A stretch of DNA of 64,000 nt. Source: Vicugna vicugna. Its lineage: Eukaryota. A model generated the notes under the pieces. That model was given only the letters and a program-made list of their open reading frames with translations, searched no databases and was not told the DNA's origin. Of this stretch, positions 4,501 through 37,130 are shown piece by piece. The stretch lies in contig MU057889.1 in assembly GCA_013265495.1 (NCBI GenBank), positions 62,001 to 126,000 on the forward strand, given 5' to 3'. How positions within the stretch are numbered: position 1 is the stretch's first letter; each line of letters starts with the position of its first letter. Made by a program: the position numbers and the translations under genes.

Positions 4501-5687
4501 GCACTAAGAAGCACAATAAAATGAGGTGTGCCTGTAACAAGCTAAAGGTCCCAGGAACAGAGCTGGAGTACAGATGATGAATTCAGGATCACACATGCAG
4601 AGTTTCGGGTGTTCTGGAATACCCAAGTAGAAATGTCCCCTTGGTAGCTGGATATATGGGTCTGAACTAAAAAGAGAGGAATCGGTAGGTCAGGCTGCTG
4701 GATTTGGGGAGTCTTCAATTGGTAGGTGGTGACTGACATGGATTAAGACTTCCCAGGGAGTGTGTGAAGAGTTAAGAATTAATTTTTACCTTCACCCCCG
4801 GCCCAGTAACCGTAAGGTTGGTTTCTGTGTTTGTTAAGTCTGTGTTTTGTAAATCAGTTCATCTGTGAGCTGGGGCTGAGCTAGCTAGTCCTTCGGGTCA
4901 TTTAGGGGCATTGGAAATAGGAACATTAACTCATCTAGGATGAAAGAGGTCAGCAGAGGAGGGAAGCGCAGACTGGAATGCCTCTAGGTGTCTCAGCTCC
5001 GGAGCTGTTCAGGTTCCACAGTGAGTTCTCCATCACCACATGTTTTCTTACACGGTGGCCTGAGAGACTCACAGGTTGGACTCTGGAGCACCGGACTGCT
5101 GGACACAGGGAGACGGTTTCTGCAGGAGAGCCCAAGAGCCAGCCTGGGTGGGACTGAGATCTAGTCCTGCAAAGCCAACCTTAAGAAAAGAGAAAGGAAG
5201 AAGTTGGAGGATGAGGTTTAAAGAGCATTCAGGCTTTAAGGTCTTATCTTTCATACTGTCACTTCTGGAGAGGGGTGAGGCAGGGCTGTACCAGAATGTT
5301 CTGAGAGTTGCAAAGAGGGCTGCTGGCAAACTTTAAACTGGTGGGTGGGATAGAGAAGACCTCTTTCTTTCCCCTAATTTCCACTGCTTCTAACAACAAA
5401 AGTCGGAGCCGGTGTGATCTCAGCTGCTTCTCCTGACTCACTCCACATGAAGGAAAGGAACCATTGACAGCGTGCCCTGTCACACTGTCCTCTACTCTGA
5501 AGGAGCCCAGCCACAGACCTGGAAATCCTCATTTTTGCCTCCAACTCAAGCCAAGTAGGATAGGCCTCTGCAACTTTTGACCCCTGTGGTCCTGCTTTCT
5601 CCAGCTGACCCACAGTCTTCAGCCAGCCCACCCTAGGGGCTCTCTATAGATTTTCCTCCAAGAGACAAAGGGGCCCAGAAAAGGCAA

Positions 5688-5900
5688 TTCATTCATTCCT
5701 TCATTCAGGAAGAATTGATTAAGCACCTATTATGTGACAAACCTGCTGTTACGTAGTGGGGATATAACAGGGATCAAGACACACAAGGACCCCACTTTCA
5801 AGAAGCTTAGAGTCCAATGGGGGAGACACATTAAACCAAGAATTACTAGACTGACAAATAAAACTATTTTAGATCCAGCATTCAGTGGTACATGTAACAA
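5688..5900 (-). mobile_element. L2 3'-end fragment
   Basis: ttcattcattc...attaagcacctattatgtg...ggggatataacaggga. Confidence 0.55.
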
Positions 5901-6437
5901 AGTGGTCCAAGAGAGGTGAGCAGGGAAGAGGCAGATGGGGGCTGGGATATCTCTGCCACCCAGTCCTTCCAAAGTCCTAGCTTAATACCAGGTGGATGCT
6001 TCACTGCATCCATCTTAGCTTGGCTACCCCCTTGATAGAAGTTATAGCTCAAGGTACAGCTTTCAAGTATCCCATGTAGATCCCTTTGCTGTACCAATTT
6101 TATGTAAATTCTCCTCAGTTACCCATGTGAGTTTGCCATCTGTTTCCTGCCAAAACCATGATTTAGTGCCGGCCCTCATGAAAAGGCTATTTACAGAAGT
6201 GGGCAGGGTTAGAGAAATTTTTTAAAAGTTGGGGCATCTAGGTTTTAGCAACAGTAAGAAACCATCATCACCCTAGGACTAAGAGGGCAAGGGAAGGAAT
6301 ACATGTTACCGTAGCCTGGTTGAGAGGTGGAGCCATGGAAAAGAGAACACTTGACAGAAATCATCATGTAAAGACCCAGCCAGTGTCAGAACTGTGGCAG
6401 AAAGGTATTAGGAGGAATAAATACATTGATCTCAATC

Positions 6438-6471
6438 TGTGTGTGTGTGTGTGTGTATGTGTGTATGTGTG
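6438..6471. repeat. (TG)n microsatellite, imperfect
   Basis: tgtgtgtgtgtgtgtgtgtatgtgtgtatgtgtg. Confidence 0.9.
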
Positions 6472-6599
6472 TTTCCTTCTCCAATATCCCATTGGCTAAA
6501 CACAATCTGAAGCTGAACCCAACCAGCACTCGGATGATCAAGTCAATAGAGGTCTGCCTTCTGGGGTATAGGGCCAAAAGGGGCTGATATGGAGAGCCA

Positions 6600-6978
6600 G
6601 ACAGAAAATAACCATCTAATCACTCCTCACTGTCAAGAACACTTTTCAAAGAGAGTAGATAGCTTTTTAAAATGTATTACAAAGAATATATCTTATTTTG
6701 GTAATAAGATTTTTTTTAAAGATAGGGCAGAGAGTACACCACCACACACATGGCAAATTAGCTTAACAGGTCCAACTTGCCAGGGTTGTTAGCAGGCCAG
6801 CCTGCCTGAGCAGGTGACATACGGACCTCAGAGCACAACCCATTGTGAGGAAGCATGGATTGTTTCTGAGGTTCTAGAATTCCCAGATGCTGTGGCTCAG
6901 CAGTGGGAGCTTCTGCTCACGTTTGCTTCACGGCTCCTGGGTACCCCACACCAGGGGCCCCTCTTTCCCAAATTCCAG
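6600..6978 (+). promoter_or_regulatory. ACRV1: ACRV1 proximal promoter and 5' UTR (spermatid-specific; no CpG island)
   Basis: Directly upstream of the ATG; contains AGAAAA (6603-6608) and ACACAC motifs (about 6744-6750) resembling described mouse SP-10 promoter elements; TSS not determinable. Confidence 0.5.
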
Positions 6979-10000: not shown

Positions 10001-11915
10001 GTGGAAAGTAAATCATGGAGACACTTTTGTCGATTAGATCCGGAAATAAGTTCCCAGAACAACTTCAATTCTTTGGCTTTTACTGAAAAGGGGTTGTTCA
10101 AGGAAGGAAAACAAGATCCAAGTTTTCATGATTCAAGTTATTACCTACCAGACACAAACACTTCATGTTTCACCCACTGTGTAAGTAATAGTGTCCCAGA
10201 TTTCCAGGTGAGAGAAGTGAGGCCAACATCAACTGGCTAGAAAGTAGCAAACTTTGGGTTCAAACTTAGGTCCAACTTCAAAGCCCAGATTCCTTCCACT
10301 TTCTATTTCCTTAATTAGGGGACTGGCAGTGGAGACAGTAAGAGAAGCAATATGGAATCATTTCAAAGAGTATGAATGCCCTTTGTGAAAAATCAACCTT
10401 GTTGAAGGTCAACTTGAGAATGGAGAATGACGCAGACACTTTACAGGGTTTGCAACATTAGAGCATTCTAACAGAGCTTATTAATCAAATTTTACTACAA
10501 ATGTTTGTGCTTTGTGGATAAGTGGGAGTGTACAGGGCGTATGGAAGGGATCAGTCACGTGAGTTCTACTTGGCTCCTACTGAGTTAGACACCACAGAAG
10601 GGCATCTAATTATACATGTCCAGGAAGCCACGGGCATATGAATTAAGAGTCAGTATTAGAGAGATAAACGTGGGATTCATCAGCAGTGAAAATCACAGTC
10701 GAAGTAGTAAGAATGCAGGAGTTTTCTGGTACGGGAAAAAGAATATGTCTTTCAGACACAGACCCTTCACATCCCCAACAAGAACCAAGAAATGGAATGT
10801 ACCCTCACCACTTGTTGCCCATCATTCCTCCCCAGATGTGTGACCCAAGGCTACACACCTGGATCATAAGGTTATTTCATCAGTCTTATCTTAAATTTTC
10901 AGGCCCGGCATTAAATTGCCACACATGCTCTTTTATGAATGAACAAGGAAAATGTCTTCGTGGAGAGGGAGTCTGCACTACTCAGAATTCCCAGCAGTGC
11001 ATGTTAAAGAAGATCTTTGAAGGTATATGGGGACTTCACGAACCAATCTTTGCCAGAGAACACATCAGCCAGCTTGAGTACGGATGGGGAGCAGTTAGGG
11101 TGGCGGGGGCCTGAGGAGGGCCCAAGCTGTGATTCCTCAGAACCTTGGAGATTCATGAGAACCTCATCCTTTCGGGAATTAAGAGCAGAATTCCAGCTAC
11201 TTAGAGAAAGGTAGAGGCCCTTCCCAGCAGGTCTAAGATGTCTTAAAAGGAGGCAGGGAGATTGGCTGTCTCTTCCTATTAAAGAAAAGTGTGAGTTGCC
11301 CCTTGAGCTGTTGAGACATTGAATGTAAGCTCAGGAATGAGCTTATTCACAACTATGTACTCCTAGCACTTGGCACAATGTCCAGCCTATGGTAGGCCTT
11401 TAGTAAATACTGAATAAGTGAATGAACTAATAAACAATGGCCCACCAGTCTGCGTTCACAGGTTGCCAGATGTGTCTGAGTGTATTCCCACACCTCTCTA
11501 CCCTTCACTCAATCCTCATCCCCCAAACAAAGAAGAGATCTTGGTTACTTCCACCTTATGAACCACACTGCCTGACTTCCCTTGTGGTTTACCTGGCCTC
11601 TCACTAGAGAGAGTGGGCAACTGATCTGAGGAAAGGCCCAGAAGATGCAGATGGAAGGGGAGGGAGAGAAAGAATATACAAGTTGGAGGACTTGGCCGTG
11701 CCTACATGGCAACTCTGGGGACCACGGATGGAGGCTAAGGCTAGAGGAGGAAGCTTTCTGCTCACTACACTCTGTCTCTGCTTCTTTCAGGTGGAAAACT
11801 TCAATTTATGGTTCAAGGGTGTGAGAACATGTGCCCATCTATGAACCTCTTCTCCCACGGAACCAGGATGCAAATCATATGCTGTCAGAACCAGTCTTTC
11901 TGCAATAAGATCTAG
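6979..11915 (+). CDS. ACRV1: Acrosomal protein SP-10 (acrosomal vesicle protein 1), whole CDS join(6979..7030,9112..9552,10903..11022,11791..11915), 245 aa
   Basis: Spliced frame of 738 nt: signal peptide [26 protein letters not shown] acidic repeats, C-terminal 10-Cys Ly6/uPAR domain ending [11 protein letters not shown]. All introns are GT-AG, phase 1. Confidence 0.97.
9112..9552 (+). CDS. ACRV1: ACRV1 coding exon 2 (SGEH/SGEQ repeat region)
   Basis: Polypyrimidine tract then cccag|GA TCA TCA GGT CAA CCT ([22 protein letters not shown]...); ends TCA G|gtgagc; 441 nt. Confidence 0.92.
9709..9912. mobile_element. MER53-like hAT MITE in ACRV1 intron 2
   Basis: caggggtcaggatccaagttttgtggggc...gccctctttaagaaaa...aagcttcatgctaaatctgcctctg matches the recalled MER53 consensus with inverted ends. 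Confidence 0.65.
10903..11022 (+). CDS. ACRV1: ACRV1 coding exon 3 (LU domain, first half)
   Basis: ttttcag|GC CCG GCA TTA AAT TGC ([40 protein letters not shown]) G|gtatat; 120 nt. Confidence 0.96.
11791..11915 (+). CDS. ACRV1: ACRV1 coding exon 4 (LU domain, second half, stop)
   Basis: ctttcag|GT GGA AAA CTT ([41 protein letters not shown]) TAG; 125 nt. Confidence 0.96.
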
Positions 11916-12132
11916 AAGACTGTGCCCTTGCTTCTTGCTCCATCACCCTGCTGGTCTCAATTTATACTTAGTTTCTACTTTACTCAACAACTGATCACAT
12001 CTTCCTCTGCCTGAGTGTTGGGCAAGATGCTTAAATATCTTCTCTTCTCTCTCCTATGCCCTGCTACCCATTCTTCTATGCCCTCTGTCTTCCCTATTCT
12101 CTTACCCAACTCTTAGCATTCTTTTCTTTTTC

Positions 12133-12138
12133 AATAAA
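12133..12138 (+). terminator. ACRV1: ACRV1 polyadenylation signal AATAAA
   Basis: First AATAAA after the stop, about 220 nt downstream. Confidence 0.75.
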
Positions 12139-12249
12139 TTCTGCATGACTAAAAGATGTAGACATTAGATAGACGTCTTTTCCTCTCAGCAAGTGGCAAG
12201 GTCACCCTGAGCTTCTTTCCACTCCACACATTAAAGTGGGTGCATTTTT

Positions 12250-12347
12250 TGTACCCTAATGTTCATAGCAGCACTATTTACAATAGCCAAGACATGAAAG
12301 CAACCTAAATGTCCATTGAGAGATGACTGGATAAAGATGTGGTATGT

Positions 12348-12387
<40 letters not shown>

Positions 12388-12827
12388 CATAATGGAATAT
12401 TACTCAGCCATAAAAATAATGAAACAATGCCATTTGTAGCAACATGGATGGATCTAGAGATTATCATCCTAAGTCAGACAGAGACAAATATCATATGATA
12501 TCACTTATATGTGGAATCTAAAAAACTGATACAAGTGAACTTATTTACAAAACAGAAACAGATTCACAAAAAAAGAAAACAAAATTTCTGGTTACCAAAG
12601 GGGAAAGAGGGGAGGGATAAATTAGGAATTTGAGATTAGCAGATACAAACTACTATATGTAAAATAGATACACAACAAGGTCCTACTGTATGGCACAGGG
12701 AACTATATTCAGTAGCTTGTAACAGCCTATAATGAAAAAGCACATACATACAAATGTATAACTGAATCACTATGCTGCACACCTGAAACTAACAACATTG
12801 TAAATGAACTATACTTCGATTAAAGAA
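12250..12827 (+). mobile_element. 5'-truncated LINE-1 (ORF2 end and 3' UTR)
   Basis: aatgttcatagcagcactatttacaatagccaagacatg...gccatttgtagcaacatggatggatctagagattatcat...cacagggaactatattcag...aactatacttc. Confidence 0.9.
12350..12382. repeat. (CA)n microsatellite inside the L1
   Basis: Direct reading. Confidence 0.92.
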
Positions 12828-14985
12828 AGTCATTTTGTAAGATGTAAGAACAGCATGCTGGCGTGCTGAAGGAGGTCTAGGAGAGAGGGAGAATGTTAAG
12901 ATGCGAGAGAGAAAGGAGAAAATCATACCCTTTGGTAGCTGAAGATACCTGAAAAGCAGTCATGAGGAAGAGCTGGCCCCAGTAAGGAGGCGCACAGGCA
13001 GGCCAAAGCCATGGCAGGCAGGAAGGCCCGCCTAGAAGTGCAGGGAGGTGGGTGTGGTGGTGGGAGCCAGTCTTTAGAACTTTCCAGCGAAACAGGAGAC
13101 GACGCAAGATTATCGTCTGAGAGTGGGAGAGGCTTGGACTAACCAGCTGAGAGCAGCTACTTTTCTGGAAGTGGAAGGGAAGGGGGCAGGGTGGGAGCCC
13201 CTCCCCAGCAGGACGCTCCAGGCTTCACCTGCTCAAGCTTCAATCCGTACACTTAGACAGCTTCAATGCTTTCTTCATGAAGGTCCTGCCCATTTGTTAC
13301 GGAGCTTACTTCTAAAACCCTTTCTAATTCTGTAGATCTCATCGATTGGATTATTTCTCCCTAATGCACTTCCTAACCGGGTGTTAAGAGATGATACACA
13401 GACCGCGAACGCTGTCCTTTGCTTTTCAACTGGTCGCTTGAGGAGACTTCGCAAAGCATTAACGTTTTCCGTTCAGCAGCCTATACATGGAATAAAAATT
13501 GGGGAAATTATAACTGATTAAGAAATTATATTTTGTCAAGAGGAAGAATATTTCACGTACAGACTGGTGAAAAGCAGACATCAGTACCCTACAGGAGTAT
13601 CTTTCGACTTGTTAGAACCTGGGTGTCCTCACCTATAAAACAGAAAATCTGTTCTATCGACATTTTAATGTGAATAATACAAGTTTGTGTAAAAATACCT
13701 GTAAGTTGTCTTGTATTATACAAATGGCACTTGTTGTTCTTAGAGAGAGAGCGAGCACTGAAGGTCAACAAGCCCCAGAGAGTAAAAGTCAACTGAAGTG
13801 CACTCTGCACGTACGTCAGGATTCCGAGTGGAAAAGGGGAACCAGGAGGCCACCTGCAGCGGGAGGGAGAGGAGGACGCGGAGAGGTGGGTCCTGGGTGC
13901 AGGTGCAGGAGGCAGCAGCCCCCCCTGCAGAGGCATCTGCATCTGAAAAGCCTGCTTGTGGCCGCCTTCCACTGGGCACCCCAGCCCTGTGCCGCCTCCC
14001 TGGGTCCACGTACATCCAAACCGTGGTCAGGCGGGGAGCGCGACAGAACCACTTTGAGGTAAAGGAGTTTTAAACTATTACATTTTGCATGACATTCATG
14101 AAAGGAAATGTTTTTGGTATCGTGGCTAATAATAACTTAAACAAAACGCAACTGTGCTTTCTAAGATGGAATGCACCTTTCTTGAAATGCACCGCAGCCT
14201 TCAATTCCGGGAAAGCTAGTGTGTTCTCGGAGGGACGCCCTAAGTTGTCCACTCTTCACTCGTCACAGCCCAATCGTCTTAGACCATTTCCAAATCAGAA
14301 GGGGAAATTCACATTTCACAGGCTGAAAGCCATAATCATGCCCCTAAATCATGACTCTCAGAACTTCATTCAAAACTAGCTTCCTACAGTGATCGCAACA
14401 GCTTAGAAATAAACAGGGCGAACCTTGCTGACGGAGCAGACTCGCCAAGCTGGGAGGCTGCAGCTAGAATCAGACACCTCCTGTGGTCAAAGCTGGACTT
14501 TGTTTTATGCATGAGTAAAGGACCTCATGATCCCAGCACGTAAGCTACAAAGAATGAGCCAATACAGTATATCTGAGACATCGGGCTTTATTTATAAATC
14601 TGTCACTCTTTCAAATGTGTCCCTTTTTTAAGAAGTTATACCTTTGTTCTGTATGGCCTCATGCTGAATTTGGTCCCCTAAAAGCATGAACGCGTGAAAC
14701 ACATTTATGAGCTGAGTGCATAATATATTAACCTACTTGAGGTTCCAAGGTTGTCACCACTCATACATCATACATTTAATCATCCTTTCTGCTAAGTTTC
14801 TGCATGGCTTCTGCCAAGTCATCCAAACCCTGAAAATTATATAATATGGAAAACAGTGAATTTACAAGTTTAATTACTGAATTCCATAAGATCTTTTTCA
14901 GTATAAATTCAGGCAACATTTTACTAGTATAAATACCACCCTAAAATAACAAGTTACAATTTAAAACATCCACACCCTTCGTATG

Positions 14986-15330
14986 TATCACTTATATGTG
15001 GAATCTAAAAAAATGGTACAAATGAACTTATTTACAGAACAGAAATGGACTCACAGACACAGAAAACAAATGTATGGTTACTAAAGAGTGGGGGAGATGG
15101 GAGGGATAAATTAGGAGTTCAGGATTAACATATTATACACCACTATATTTAAAATAAATAAACAATGACCTACTGTATAGCACAGGGAACTATATTTAAT
15201 ATCTCATAATTACCTATAACAGAAAAGAATCTGAAAAAGAATAGATATATATAACTGAATCACTGTACACCAAAAAATAACACAAAATTATAAGTCAACT
15301 ATACTTCCACTAAAAAAAAATAAAGTGTAT
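14986..15330 (+). mobile_element. Second LINE-1 3' UTR end with A-tail
   Basis: tatcacttatatgtggaatctaaaaaa...cacagggaactatattt...caactatacttccactaaaaaaaaataaa. Confidence 0.88.
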
Positions 15331-17688
15331 AAAGTGGGTGCATTTTTAAACTATTCCCTATTCCTCAAAGTGAACCACCACACCACCCCGCCCCACCCCA
15401 ACCCCCAGCTGCCACAGGGGCAGAGACCAAAAAGAGAAATGCAAAATAGGTGTTAACTTTTTAGGAGCTTAAAAACGATATCGCAGGTCCTTCTCTCTGA
15501 CCTCCAAACTTTCCATCCCTCTGGAAACCACACACACTTCTACTTATTACGGTGTTCAACTCACCCCTTCTTTGGCTCCGGAGAGTCTTCAGTGAAGAGT
15601 CTACCCTTAACATAATTATAACAATAAATTGACTCCTTTGAATTTACTTGCTATGTAAATATGTAGGTCATAATTATCACATCTTCTCACACACAATGTT
15701 ACTGATTCATCTCAGCATAGAGGGGCAGGGGGAAATCCCACAGTCCCTCCTCTCACCTTGTATTGGTATTATGTTCTTCAAGGTATTTTCACATACATGG
15801 TTGCATCTGTTCCTCAGAAAAGAGCCCAGAAGAGTAGTCAGGAAAGATAGCATCATCCTTAGTTTATAAGTAAGAAAGTGTGACATAAAAATGTTTTATA
15901 TATTCATACTCTGTATTGTTCTGAACTTGTCAGGTTTACAGAGCTACAGGGAGCCCTGGCCAGATTTCAAAACCAAATCTACATGATCTCAGTCTGTTTG
16001 CACCACACTATGACTATTAGCCAAAATGGTCCTTTCAAGACCAAAATCAAACCTCTCTCCTACACAAGCCCATTTCCTATTAGCCATTGCTCCCCAACAC
16101 CTCTGCTTAAAAGCCCTTGAGATCAACTGGGGAGTCTTAACGGTGCCTTTTGCAGAGCAGAAACCTTTAATTTTTATAAAATCTAATTTGTCAATGTTTT
16201 ATTTACGGGTAGGGCTTTTGATTTCATACATAAGAACTCAGAATCCCAGAAGAATTCTCAACTTGAAATACAGTTTACTGGGGGGCAAGAAAGAAACAAA
16301 ATTCTACTAACATTGTGGACACTTTTTTTGAGGGAGGGGGATAAATATTAGCTAAATACATTAAATACAGCTAAATCTATTCACAATATATGTCGTGGGA
16401 ATGAATTCAAGTATGTTGTTGAAATTTAACGGCAGAGGAGTTCTGGCTTCCAATAGTGGTGGATTCGTTCGGTTGAACTAGCCCTACTTCAGGTAACTAT
16501 AAACACTTAACAAAAATTCAGAAACAACTATTTTAAAGTTCCTTGAAGAGAACTATATAGAAGTTTCCTGTATTTGTATTTTGTATTCGTATATTTTATG
16601 TATATTTGCTGAATTGAATAGCAGTTGCTGAATTGAATACAGAATATGAAAACCACATCAAGGAAGATTTCTAGAGTTTTGACTCAAGAAACTGGGGAGC
16701 TAATGTAGTATTTATTTAGACGGGGACTCTAGGGAGGAGTAAGTTGGAGGACATGGATCAGAAGTTGGTTTTGGCCATAAGATGACTATTAGTCAAGGGG
16801 AAATGTCAGGTAGGCTGTGGCTATAAAAGCCTGGAACTCAGGGGAGAGGTCAAAGCCAGAGACAACTTTGATTCTGAGAGTTACTGATGGCCAGCTGACA
16901 ATTCTCAAGAACAAAATTTCTTTCATATTTGAGAATGCACTGGCTCAATTCTTAGGAGCCTCCTGTAGGTTTGAATTGATTCCTCGTATGGGTATACTAC
17001 AGTAACACAATTCACCAGTATATACCTCATATGATAAACTCGATAAAATTTCATGCTTTTGGCCTCAGACTAAGATAACTGACTAATTTTTATAAATTAC
17101 CAAGGAAAAGGAATACAGGGTCCCAATCGAATACATTCAAAAGTTAGTATGAATTTTATCAGAAGAACAAGGTCTTACTAAAACTAATAGGTAAAAGGTC
17201 CTACGGATAGGAATAGGAACTAATAGGAATCAGATCTATTTCCATCATAGCTTCCTCACGTCTCCCTGCTCTTGCACTCCTTACCACCTGGAAGCTTAGC
17301 CACCAATAAGTTCACAGAGTTAGCTATCCACTTTCAAAATAGAATTTATTTCTGTAATAAAGAATTAAAATATGGCTGTGAAAGTAGAAAATAATACAGA
17401 AAAATATTTAAAATGTGCAACAGTAATTCAGAGTAAAGGTAGTTAAGCACTAGAGTTCATGCTCAACTTCTACTTGACAGACCAATCCATATTTTATATA
17501 TTGTTAACTACACCAGAAAAACAAAACATACCGACTTGCAATTTTAATTAATAATTATAATTCAAAAACAGGTTTATATACCTGGTCAGGCCCTTTTGAA
17601 AATATAAGTACAAATCTTATGGATATATTTTGATGTTCGCTTCACTTCACAGACTGATAAATCTACTGTCCCAAAGTCACAGGTTGTT

Positions 17689-17694
17689 TTTATT
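17689..17694 (-). terminator. CHEK1: Candidate CHEK1 polyadenylation signal AATAAA (a second candidate lies at 17345-17350)
   Basis: tttatt on + at 17689 and 17345, inside the AT-rich 3' UTR. Confidence 0.5.
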
Positions 17695-18076
17695 AACTCA
17701 TTCATGCAATTAAGTCAACATGGAGGAAATACGTACTTTTTGGATGAAACCAAATGTTTTGGTAAAAATAGGACAAGTGTATCATTTTTCATTATGTTGG
17801 TAATAAAAGCCGGTAAACGCATGTATCCCCAAAGCTTGGTTTACACCAGGTGGGTCTCAAATTCAGACACTAACCGCAGGTGAAGAAATATCTAATGAAT
17901 TCTATACACCCCTTCCCCAGAGTTTTACTTACAGTTAAGATATAGGTATTATTTGTATGAAGAACATACAAAAAAGGATTGAAAAATGTTTGGCTAGAAG
18001 GAAGACAGCTCTTCAGGGACTACTGCTTGCAGTTTGTAGAGTAAGATAATCTTCTCTAGGAAGAATAATGTCCACA

Positions 18077-18084
18077 TAGCAGCA
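18077..18084 (-). promoter_or_regulatory. CHEK1: miR-15/16/195/424/497 family 8mer site in CHEK1 3' UTR
   Basis: TGCTGCTA on the minus strand, 37 nt after the stop; CHEK1 is an established target of this seed family. Confidence 0.75.
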
Positions 18085-18120
18085 CTATATTCACCAGGAA
18101 TCCCAGAGCCAGTGGATCTA

Positions 18121-36277
<18,157 letters not shown>

Positions 36278-36525: not shown

Positions 36526-37130
36526 NNNNNNNNNNNNNNNNNNNNNNNNNNNNNNNNNNNNNNNNNNNNNNNNNNNNNNNNNNNNNNNNNNNNNNNNNNN
36601 NNNNNNNNNNNNNNNNNNNNNNNNNNNNNNNNNNNNNNNNNNNNNNNNNNNNNNNNNNNNNNNNNNNNNNNNNNNNNNNNNNNNNNNNNNNNNNNNNNNN
36701 NNNNNNNNNNNNNNNNNNNNNNNNNNNNNNNNNNNNNNNNNNNNNNNNNNNNNNNNNNNNNNNNNNNNNNNNNNNNNNNNNNNNNNNNNNNNNNNNNNNN
36801 NNNNNNNNNNNNNNNNNNNNNNNNNNNNNNNNNNNNNNNNNNNNNNNNNNNNNNNNNNNNNNNNNNNNNNNNNNNNNNNNNNNNNNNNNNNNNNNNNNNN
36901 NNNNNNNNNNNNNNNNNNNNNNNNNNNNNNNNNNNNNNNNNNNNNNNNNNNNNNNNNNNNNNNNNNNNNNNNNNNNNNNNNNNNNNNNNNNNNNNNNNNN
37001 NNNNNNNNNNNNNNNNNNNNNNNNNNNNNNNNNNNNNNNNNNNNNNNNNNNNNNNNNNNNNNNNNNNNNNNNNNNNNNNNNNNNNNNNNNNNNNNNNNNN
37101 NNNNNNNNNNNNNNNNNNNNNNNNNNNNNN
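36526..37130. other. Assembly gap (605 N) in CHEK1 intron 1
   Basis: Run of N flanked by G-rich tracts. Confidence 0.99.

Follow-up and report, generated by a model that had tools for sequence, protein, structure and literature searches.

How did two pieces of L1 and about 2.15 kb of non-L1 DNA come to lie within one perfect target-site duplication (TSD)? The locus belongs to a 64-kb stretch of DNA, referred to here in its entirety as the window, and the first-pass annotation had read it as a candidate product of LINE-1 3′ transduction. The duplication itself was borne out in full. Specifically, AAAGTGGGTGCATTTTT occurs on the plus strand at 12233–12249 and 15331–15347 and nowhere else in the window; the expected count is 0.03 when up to two mismatches are allowed, and 0 of 100 shuffles held two matches. 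The direct repeat is perfect over 17 bp, or over 18 bp when the T at 12232 is included, and its left copy is preceded by TT, giving a TT/AAAG target site of the L1 endonuclease type. Other L1 copies show homology from 12250 to near 15320–15330, and both flanks of the bracketed block are single copy in the assembly, with no alternative haplotig there. The TSD and TT/AAAG site suit an old resident L1 equally well as they do a 3′ transduction.

With respect to its surroundings, the block follows the sole AATAAA in 11900–12233 (12133–12138, plus strand), which is located downstream of the last exon of a plus-strand UPAR_LY6-domain gene with exons at 10668–11111 and 11745–11912. It is putatively ACRV1, the name given in the first-pass annotation. 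The signal ends 95 bp before the left repeat copy, a small refinement of the distance of about 100 bp put forward earlier. The block lies on the side of the UPAR_LY6-domain gene toward which the convergent CHEK1 gene ends.

The composition of the block was likewise confirmed, in that two L1 pieces and 2.15 kb of non-L1 DNA are indeed present. Their assignment to LINE-1 comes from L050, a copy 94% identical to 12250–12332 that matches ORF2p residues 1134–1273 (E 9e-51) and whose translation represents the last 140 residues of LINE-1 ORF2p; the window's own L1 frame is interrupted by stops. The intervening DNA (12830–14985) is non-repetitive and has a single other place in the 2.03-Gb assembly. 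Window positions 12250–14983 align with this place (C3689:9788415–9791154), which upholds the earlier view that DNA from another locus is present here.

A central feature of this alignment is an abrupt switch in identity. Nine of the 11 mismatches to the C3689 locus fall in the first 83 bp (12252–12332), a clustering with a binomial p of 1.1e-12 and a Fisher p of 7e-13. As a result, 12250–12332 is ~11% diverged from C3689 whereas the remainder is 99.9% identical, and the switch after 12332 occurs in L1 register, within an alignment that is gapless from 12250 to 13461. Over 12333–14983 the two loci differ at only 2 of 2651 sites (13223 and 14240) and by one 6-bp deletion in the window, which corresponds to a divergence of 0.08%. 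The left L1 had been described as a single piece; its L1 nature stands, while its unity is lost, with 12250–12332 local and 12333–12828 copied from the C3689 donor.

Within the copied tract, the L1 part (12333–12828, plus strand) is identical to the donor L1, carries an (AC)16 run at 12350–12381 and is joined to the resident L1 in register with no indel. It is followed by gtcattttgt (12829–12838, plus strand), the 3′ TSD copy of the donor L1, whose partner GACATTTTGT is located at the donor just 5′ of the donor L1. This amends the annotation, which had found no TSD belonging to either L1 alone; the partner of this copy lies outside the window. The unique donor flank (12829–14983, plus strand, ~2.15 kb) runs to the right junction at 14982–14983 (plus strand), where TA is common to the donor (...CTTCGTA/G) and the L1 (...CATA/TGATATCAC), a 2-bp microhomology. 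No A-tail is present at the 3′ end of the tract (14983), and poly(A) is found at neither end. Both junctions are known from one assembly, and word shares of 72–84% in 20 runs are values that are not junction-specific.

The donor locus itself is native and intact: its own TSD brackets the L1, further unique DNA lies beyond, and no N occurs in 20 kb. The donor L1 is a 5′-truncated, old element of ~600 bp that starts at ~C3689:9788395 and is 76–84% identical to other copies among 40 scored of 16022 candidates, with most of these matches beginning at query 281–284, equivalent to C3689:9788395. Its TSD is decayed (GACATTTTGT/GTCATTTTGT), and because the 3′ copy sits inside the shared tract, the direction of transfer was from C3689 to the window. 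As confirmation, the annotation had asked for a paralog with a longer L1 before it and the second L1 after it. The paralog was found, preceded by an L1 only 20 bp longer than that of the window; the right L1 is absent from the donor, where homology ends at 14983. Aside from the L1-to-L1 match, the 20-kb donor region shows no further similarity.

Turning to the resident L1, its 5′ piece (12250–12332, plus strand) represents the end of ORF2, differs from the donor L1 at 9 of 83 sites and is not donor-derived. Judged against the base held by most of 36 other L1 copies, this stretch deviates at 5/83 sites and the donor likewise at 5/83, which indicates that window and donor are two independent old L1 copies. 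Elsewhere in the assembly, the best sources for the 83 bp are 96–97% identical. The 3′ piece (14984–15320, plus strand) ends in a short decayed A-tail (ctaaaaaaaaa, 15310–15320), is absent from the donor locus and is off the majority base at 43/322 sites; its best other match in the genome (for 14984–15330) is 83% among 40 scored of 7111 candidates. A first look at the assembly gave L1 candidates in the thousands.

Because 12250–12332 and 14984–15330 are collinear, non-overlapping parts of an L1 in the same orientation inside the TSD, with position 14986 of the right L1 aligning with 12499 of the left, their best reading is as two parts of one old L1, on grounds of this geometry and the absence of other sources. 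Approximately 160 bp is missing between them (donor coordinates 12333–12494). A test for shared subfamily between the 83-bp piece and the right L1 was uninformative (Spearman −0.09, p 0.60). The repeats at 12233–12249 and 15331–15347 would then be the left and right TSD copies of this resident element. Their intactness counts against our preferred explanation: the probability that 2 × 17 bp survive perfectly falls from ~0.25 to 0.13 and 0.01 as divergence rises from 4% to 6% and 13%.

Taken together, the course of identity along the block and the condition of the donor make a DNA-repair product the most likely origin of the block. In our judgment it is probable, though well short of assured, that a break in the old L1 was repaired by copying a non-allelic L1 and its flank, followed by end joining at microhomology. 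Specifically, a 5′-truncated L1 of ~560–600 bp would have inserted by target-primed reverse transcription ~95 bp past the AATAAA and generated the 17–18 bp TSD. Long afterwards, in recent time, this resident L1 would have suffered a double-strand break or a collapsed fork, probably at or near the dinucleotide microsatellite often borne at that position, where 21 of 36 other L1 copies contain a run of at least 5 units. The left end would then have invaded or annealed to the non-allelic old L1 on C3689, and repair synthesis would have copied the rest of the donor L1, its 3′ TSD copy and 2.15 kb of unique flank. At only 77–81% identity, the L1 homology on the right may have been insufficient for the new strand to be captured there; this strand would instead have been end-joined to the right break end at the 2-bp TA, at a cost to the resident L1 of ~160 bp in donor coordinates.

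The relationship between the two loci, its direction, the abrupt identity switch, the structure of each junction and the age of both L1s are shown by the sequences, whereas we infer the break, its position and the repair pathway. An in-register, indel-free left junction and a non-homologous right junction with microhomology and recipient loss are features that one-sided repair would leave. One-sided invasion (synthesis-dependent strand annealing, SDSA) with end joining, replicative template switching and capture of a donor fragment cannot be told apart here. Strand invasion into a partner merely 89% identical over 83 bp is inefficient in mammalian cells, and this low homology over the surviving 83 bp counts against the invasion step.

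The classical alternative is that transcription of an active source L1 passed its weak poly(A) signal, continued across 2.15 kb of flank and terminated at the tail of an L1 further on, the whole being inserted as a single unit. This would account for the order of L1, unique DNA and L1 with A-tail inside one TSD, as well as for a paralog of the unique DNA directly 3′ of another L1 elsewhere. However, the donor L1 is an old, 5′-truncated 600-bp stump with its own TSD and is therefore incapable of driving its own retrotransposition, and identity along the block is non-uniform, with the first 83 bp 11% diverged and the remainder 99.9% identical. Moreover, the donor lacks the downstream L1, for which no source above 83% was found among 40 scored of 7111 candidates, and the copied tract ends at 14983 without an A run, abutting an L1 fragment that the donor lacks. 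We find the transduction proposed in the annotation scarcely credible. Its fallback, recombination into a pre-existing L1, came close to the data as a general idea, given that the recipient was probably such an L1 and that the left junction lies within L1 homology. In its specific form, an excised L1-bearing circle or fragment integrating by homologous crossover, it is very improbable: a single circle crossover predicts both junctions in L1 homology and a duplicated 5′ part of the donor L1, whereas the right junction, outside donor homology, joins unique DNA to L1 at 2 bp. A captured linear fragment that annealed on the left and was end-joined on the right cannot be separated from our preferred explanation.

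An RNA route, which we rate as quite unlikely, takes two forms: a donor transcript reverse-transcribed to fill the L1 break in the endonuclease-independent, class 2 manner, or one target-primed event switching among three RNAs (one bearing the old L1, the donor and a further L1). The perfect TSD and a TT/AAAG site that suits L1 endonuclease preference are in keeping with this, as are distant-locus templated insertions proposed to be RNA-derived, in the account that PMC5110952 gives of them, and the L1-associated break repair described in parts of PMC1920257. On the other hand, poly(A) flanks the copied tract at neither end, the left junction falls exactly in L1 register as homology-guided repair predicts, and the short decayed A-tail beside the right TSD is unlike that of a fresh insertion. 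The three-template version would in addition require near-identical sources, and the best are 96–97% for 12250–12332 and 83% for 14984–15330 (the latter among 40 scored of 7111). An assembly artefact, in which C3689 reads or a haplotype contig wrongly filled a gap left by a repeat in what is really an intact old L1, is also unlikely, if somewhat easier to entertain. The left switch adjoins the (AC)16 within the L1, a place where short-read assemblers also mis-join; the contig (C1017) is small at 129,678 bp, the window holds a 605-N run, and the junctions rest on one assembly. Furthermore, a difference of just 2 substitutions and one indel over the 2651-bp tract is compatible with a misplaced allele, 0.08% being inside the range of ordinary heterozygosity. 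Against this, the copies are non-identical and so do not represent one read set used twice, and across the first 20 kb of the window no other non-self match exceeds 88% identity. At the right junction, where no N occurs, unique donor DNA and L1 overlap by just 2 bp, which would be an abnormal product for overlap or graph assemblers, and a 2.65-kb fill for a ~160-bp gap would be unlikely.

Repair of the kind that we favor is already known, reportedly from Belmaaza and Chartrand (in 1994), Nassif et al. (in 1994) and Tremblay, Jasin and Chartrand (in 2000), who are said to have described one-sided invasion or SDSA finished by end joining, including a chromosomal LINE break repaired by gene conversion with endogenous LINEs. 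The present locus resembles those cases in having one junction in register within non-allelic repeat homology, copying that continues past the homology into donor flank, an unchanged donor, and another junction that is non-homologous with microhomology. It differs in that those studies used induced breaks in cultured cells or flies, whereas the event here would be spontaneous and inherited in a mammal, with a partner ~11% diverged, 2.15 kb of unique DNA copied and a position inside an old TSD that imitates a retrotransposition product. L1 3′ transduction was reportedly described by Moran in 1999 and Pickeral in 2000; in contrast to it, the source L1 here is incompetent, no poly(A) follows the copied DNA, the terminal L1 is not found at the source and the 5′ 83 bp are not source-derived. 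What is shared with transduction, and with class 1 templated insertions as PMC5110952 outlines them, is an L1, unique DNA and an A-tail in one TSD at TT/AAAG, as well as a second copy of the unique DNA that follows an L1 at another locus.

Class 2 templated sequence insertion polymorphisms have end-joining features at their junctions and are argued to be RNA-derived (Onozawa & Aplan, PMC5110952). By that paper's description of the class, our locus is similar as a distant-locus patch that brings neither a TSD nor a poly(A) signal or tract of its own and shows signs of end joining at one junction, and dissimilar in a left junction that was homology-guided within L1 and in having nothing that points to RNA. 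Non-classical endonuclease-independent insertions, as sampled by Sen et al. (2007, PMC1920257), involve young L1s (<2% divergence) and 4–312 bp of extra DNA; at one of them, NCLI34, a diverged segment in the middle of the L1, which matches another place at 98%, is ascribed to insertion by a later gene conversion. Our locus has in common with the insertions described there an L1-involving break repair, additional nucleotides from outside L1, microhomology at a junction and the loss of some sequence at the target, and is set apart by two old L1s and extra DNA of 2.15 kb.

In terms of local effect, the event placed 2.65 kb of additional non-coding DNA beyond the UPAR_LY6-domain gene, ~95 bp from its poly(A) signal, on the side of the CHEK1 end. 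In the copied flank (12829–14983), neither coding sequence nor an RNA family was detected: no Pfam family was matched by eight ORFs from 12830–14985, nor by a ninth in the L1 part (12298–12495), Rfam gave no match, and CpG observed/expected was 0.31–0.49. By these Pfam, Rfam and CpG tests, no functional element was detected within the patch. Given 0.08% divergence between the copies, the event is recent, and it may still be polymorphic.

The broader implication is that dead, diverged L1 stumps could, by providing anchoring homology, carry kilobases of unique DNA from one locus to another without retrotransposition, in this instance through a germline break at an L1-borne microsatellite, a partner ~11% diverged and the delivery of 2.15 kb of flank into the space between convergent genes; we regard the case for this as evenly balanced. 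Because the product lies inside the TSD of an old element, it is at first sight indistinguishable from a 3′ transduction, and its layout, along with the placement of the paralog behind another L1, would satisfy most sequence-only criteria for that process, which constitutes a practical warning for transduction calling. If reads confirm the locus, it would provide an inherited, natural case in which ectopic repair between old repeats began through homology and finished by end joining, a route documented chiefly for induced breaks. If our explanation is true, some catalogued mammalian transductions and small dispersed duplications could be repair scars of the same kind.

The non-L1 stretch at 12830-14985 was found at exactly one other place in the window's own assembly, on contig C3689 (9788995-9791154), which bears out the proposal of the first-pass annotation that DNA from another locus lies here. 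A BLAST comparison with 20 kb of the donor locus placed the whole of window 12250-14983 against C3689:9788415-9791154; the 2740 aligned columns are 99.38% identical and include 11 mismatches and a single gap. Apart from this, the 20 kb showed only a 77% L1-to-L1 match between the right L1 of the window (14984-15330) and the donor L1. Specifically, nine of the 11 mismatches fall within 12252-12332, and the following 2651 bases (12333-14983) hold two substitutions (13223 and 14240) and one 6-base deletion, a clustering with a chance probability of about 1e-12. APOBEC-type editing was ruled out as the source of this cluster, the nine changes being of mixed types. No gap interrupts the alignment at the switch in identity, and one L1 therefore passes into the other precisely in register. 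The sole indel between the copies lies at window 13461/13462, where the donor (C3689:9789627-9789632) carries 6 extra bp, TGTCAC; a 2-bp AC repeat flanks this difference, which is a slippage-type change in one or other of the two copies.

The block that contains this tract is bracketed by a perfect direct repeat. The 17-base sequence AAAGTGGGTGCATTTTT stands at 12233-12249 and at 15331-15347, enclosing both local L1 pieces, and the repeat reaches 18 bases once the T before 12233 is counted; the target site reads TT/AAAG. These are its only two occurrences in the 64-kb window (expected matches 0.03 with two mismatches allowed), and none of 100 shuffles contained two, in agreement with the target-site duplication (TSD) first reported for this locus. 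The DNA outside the repeat is single copy on both sides in the 2.03-Gb assembly, and in dozens of other copies of the element homology starts at 12250 and stops near 15320-15330, so what the direct repeat encloses begins and ends in repeat-element sequence. Judged by its homology, this element is a LINE-1: copy L050, elsewhere in the assembly, is 94% identical to window 12250-12332 and translates to the last 140 residues of the LINE-1 ORF2 protein (E 9e-51 against solved human ORF2p). The window's own L1 frame holds stop codons, and its ORF matched no Pfam family; eight upstream ORFs likewise gave 0/8 Pfam matches, and a solved-structure search with one ORF gave none. Between the short A-tail of the old L1 and the right TSD copy, the 7-mer TAAAGTG occurs twice (15321-15327 and 15330-15336), so that part of the TSD's beginning is present a second time beside the A-tail (15321-15336), which could reflect slippage at insertion or a later micro-duplication.

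With respect to the donor, its L1 is an old, 5'-truncated stump of about 600 bases, 76-84% identical to other L1 copies among the best 40 of 16022 candidates, most of which begin to match at query 281-284 (C3689:9788395, 20 bases 5' of the start of the window L1). A stump of this age, lacking promoter and open reading frames, is not a competent element. It retains its own, slightly decayed TSD, with GACATTTTGT before it and GTCATTTTGT after the decayed tail. The 3' copy of this TSD lies inside the shared tract (window 12829-12838) and its 5' partner outside it on C3689; the pair straddles the tract edge, indicating that the tract belongs originally to C3689 and reached the window locus as a copy, and ruling out the reverse direction. 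Set against the majority base of 36 other L1 copies, window and donor each differ at 5 of the first 83 sites; these stretches are two independent old copies as opposed to source and offspring. In the 20-kb donor neighborhood, 113 ORFs gave a single Pfam match, under the cut-off. Some 3-4 kb before the donor L1 on its upstream side (positions 5545-6740 of this region, L003), a 285-aa open frame on the plus strand (L003:5886-6740) belongs to no Pfam family, and an adjoining ORF carries a weak P2RX7_C match (E 8.7e-4; 19.7 bits, below the cut-off of 23.5).

The sequence left behind when the copied tract is set aside resembles a single element. The local pieces 12250-12332 and 14984-15330 lie on the same strand, are collinear and do not overlap in L1 coordinates (14986 in the right L1 aligns with 12499 in the left), and are separated by a gap of about 160 bases in donor coordinates. 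The right L1 is old: among the best 40 of 7111 candidates in the genome none matches it above 83%, 43 of 322 sites differ from the majority base, and its A-tail consists of nine A's followed by other bases. The 83-base piece has best other matches of 94-97% (top 96-97%), and a younger age for it was considered and ruled out, since the donor's equivalent 83 bases score alike (94-96%) and the high identity reflects ORF2 conservation only. At 96-97% and 83%, neither local piece has a near-identical source elsewhere in the assembly. The simplest reading is that both would derive from one old 5'-truncated L1 of about 560-600 bases with its own TSD. A subfamily test, comparing closeness to the right L1 and to the 83-bp piece across 36 L1 copies, was uninformative (Spearman -0.09, p 0.60), and the eight copies nearest the 83-bp piece have 3' ends 73-84% identical to the right L1 and the donor L1 alike, and so do not discriminate between the two. 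For an L1 diverged by 4-13%, the probability that a perfect 17-base TSD pair survives is about 0.25 to 0.01. This places the perfect TSD in mild tension with a repair event in an old L1, a tension softened by the fact that the locus was picked for its perfect repeat.

Taken together, we consider the block to be probably an ectopic repair patch in an old L1, started by homology and finished by end joining. A break or collapsed fork in the resident L1 would have been repaired from the non-allelic donor L1, with a homology-guided left junction in register, copying through the rest of the donor L1, the donor TSD and then 2.15 kb of unique flank, and a right end that was joined and not captured by homology. 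Just after the identity switch lies an (AC)16 run (12350-12381) of equal length in both copies. At the L1 position equivalent to window 12340-12390, 21 of 36 other L1 3' ends (L006-L044) carry dinucleotide runs of at least 5 units (5-27 units of AC, AT or GT), a share that may be biased because the copies were retrieved by similarity; among such copies, this ORF2-terminal site is expansion-prone in the Vicugna vicugna genome. Given this frequency, the resident L1 could plausibly have carried a microsatellite that served as break site and as anchor for annealing. The equal length of the two (AC)16 runs was dropped as a dating clue, as it would not be improbable under stepwise mutation.

At the right junction, donor ...CTTCGTA is joined to L1 ...TGTATCAC; other L1 copies read ...CATATGATATCAC here, leaving only TA common to donor and L1. 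L1 homology on this side is only 77% (BLAST) or 257/319 sites, 81% (multiple alignment), which may explain why end joining took the place of homology capture. Such a course would correspond to one-sided invasion, or to synthesis-dependent strand annealing that was completed by end joining. The same product would be expected from replicative template switching, or if a donor fragment had annealed on one side and been captured. Precedents for the individual steps reportedly include gene conversion in which endogenous LINEs served to mend a broken chromosomal one (Tremblay et al. in 2000), one-sided invasion (Belmaaza and Chartrand in 1994) and ectopic sites from which non-homologous DNA was copied (Nassif et al. 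in 1994). At typical mammalian rates, two substitutions in 2651 bases suggest an event age of the order of 1e5 years, and the patch may still be polymorphic.

The first-pass annotation had favored an L1 3' transduction, in which a source L1 carries its 3' flank to a new site, and had expected a paralog preceded by a longer L1 and followed by the second L1. The paralog is indeed present in the same assembly, but its L1 is only 20 bases longer and the second L1 is absent. Moreover, the mismatches are uneven where a single transcript is proposed, the 83-base parts are independent old copies, the donor L1 is not competent, and no A run closes the copied tract at 14983. Beyond that point the donor continues as unrelated unique DNA, and the right L1 is old. 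Classical transduction is accordingly the most improbable reading. Integration of a DNA circle or fragment is also very improbable, although the recombination into a pre-existing L1 that formed part of the annotation's fallback comes close to the data. An RNA-based patch or chimera is unlikely.

An assembly artefact is fairly unlikely. The window lies on a small contig (C1017) and contains a run of 605 N, the left switch sits beside a microsatellite, where assemblers err, and the 0.08% difference between copies fits a misplaced allele. Against this, donor and L1 overlap by only 2 bases at the right junction, which is free of N, the two copies are not identical, the assembly holds no alternative contig with the flanks, and the tract is the sole non-self match above 88% in the window's first 20 kb. 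A search of sequencing runs recovered 72-84% of sampled words in 20 runs from 7 studies under three organism labels; these shares are not junction-specific and say nothing about the junctions, because most of the words sampled are present at the donor locus anyway.

In terms of gene setting, the two halves of a UPAR_LY6 domain lie in two plus-strand exons (10668-11111 and 11745-11912), followed by an AATAAA at 12133-12138, and protein-kinase exons occupy 28-35 kb on the minus strand, one of which matches human Chk1 at E 1e-37 (next kinase family 1e-12). This agrees with the convergent ACRV1-CHEK1 arrangement proposed earlier, ACRV1 being the annotation's name only. The last coding exon and 3' end of CHEK1 were not located among the ORFs of 15348-19000. 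The N run (36526-37130) falls between the minus-strand kinase (CHEK1) exons and is a scaffold gap or a withheld stretch. Contig C1017 measures 129,678 bp, compared with 14.9 Mb for C3689, so the ACRV1-CHEK1 interval sits on a small, unplaced assembly piece. Positions 1845-2305 hold a further interspersed repeat, about 455 bp long and present in many genome copies at 82-88% identity. The patch itself shows no coding or RNA function by the tests applied: eight ORFs matched no Pfam family, Rfam returned no family, and a CpG observed/expected ratio of 0.31-0.49 indicates no CpG island.

PMC5110952 divides templated insertions from distant loci into a LINE-1-mediated class, recognized by its TSD, poly(A) signal, poly(A) tail and TTTT/A site, and a break-repair class that lacks these and shows end-joining features. 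The window patch resembles the break-repair class at its right end and differs from it at its homology-guided left end. For non-classical L1 insertions, Sen et al. 2007 (PMC1920257) considers L1 RNA capture, strand-annealing repair and break-induced recombination, and explains one locus by later gene conversion inserting a diverged L1 segment. Our literature search returned no natural mammalian case in which an L1-anchored repair patch within an old TSD carried kilobases of unique flank, and a published case may exist. The locus is moderately interesting, chiefly because it mimics a transduction in nature.
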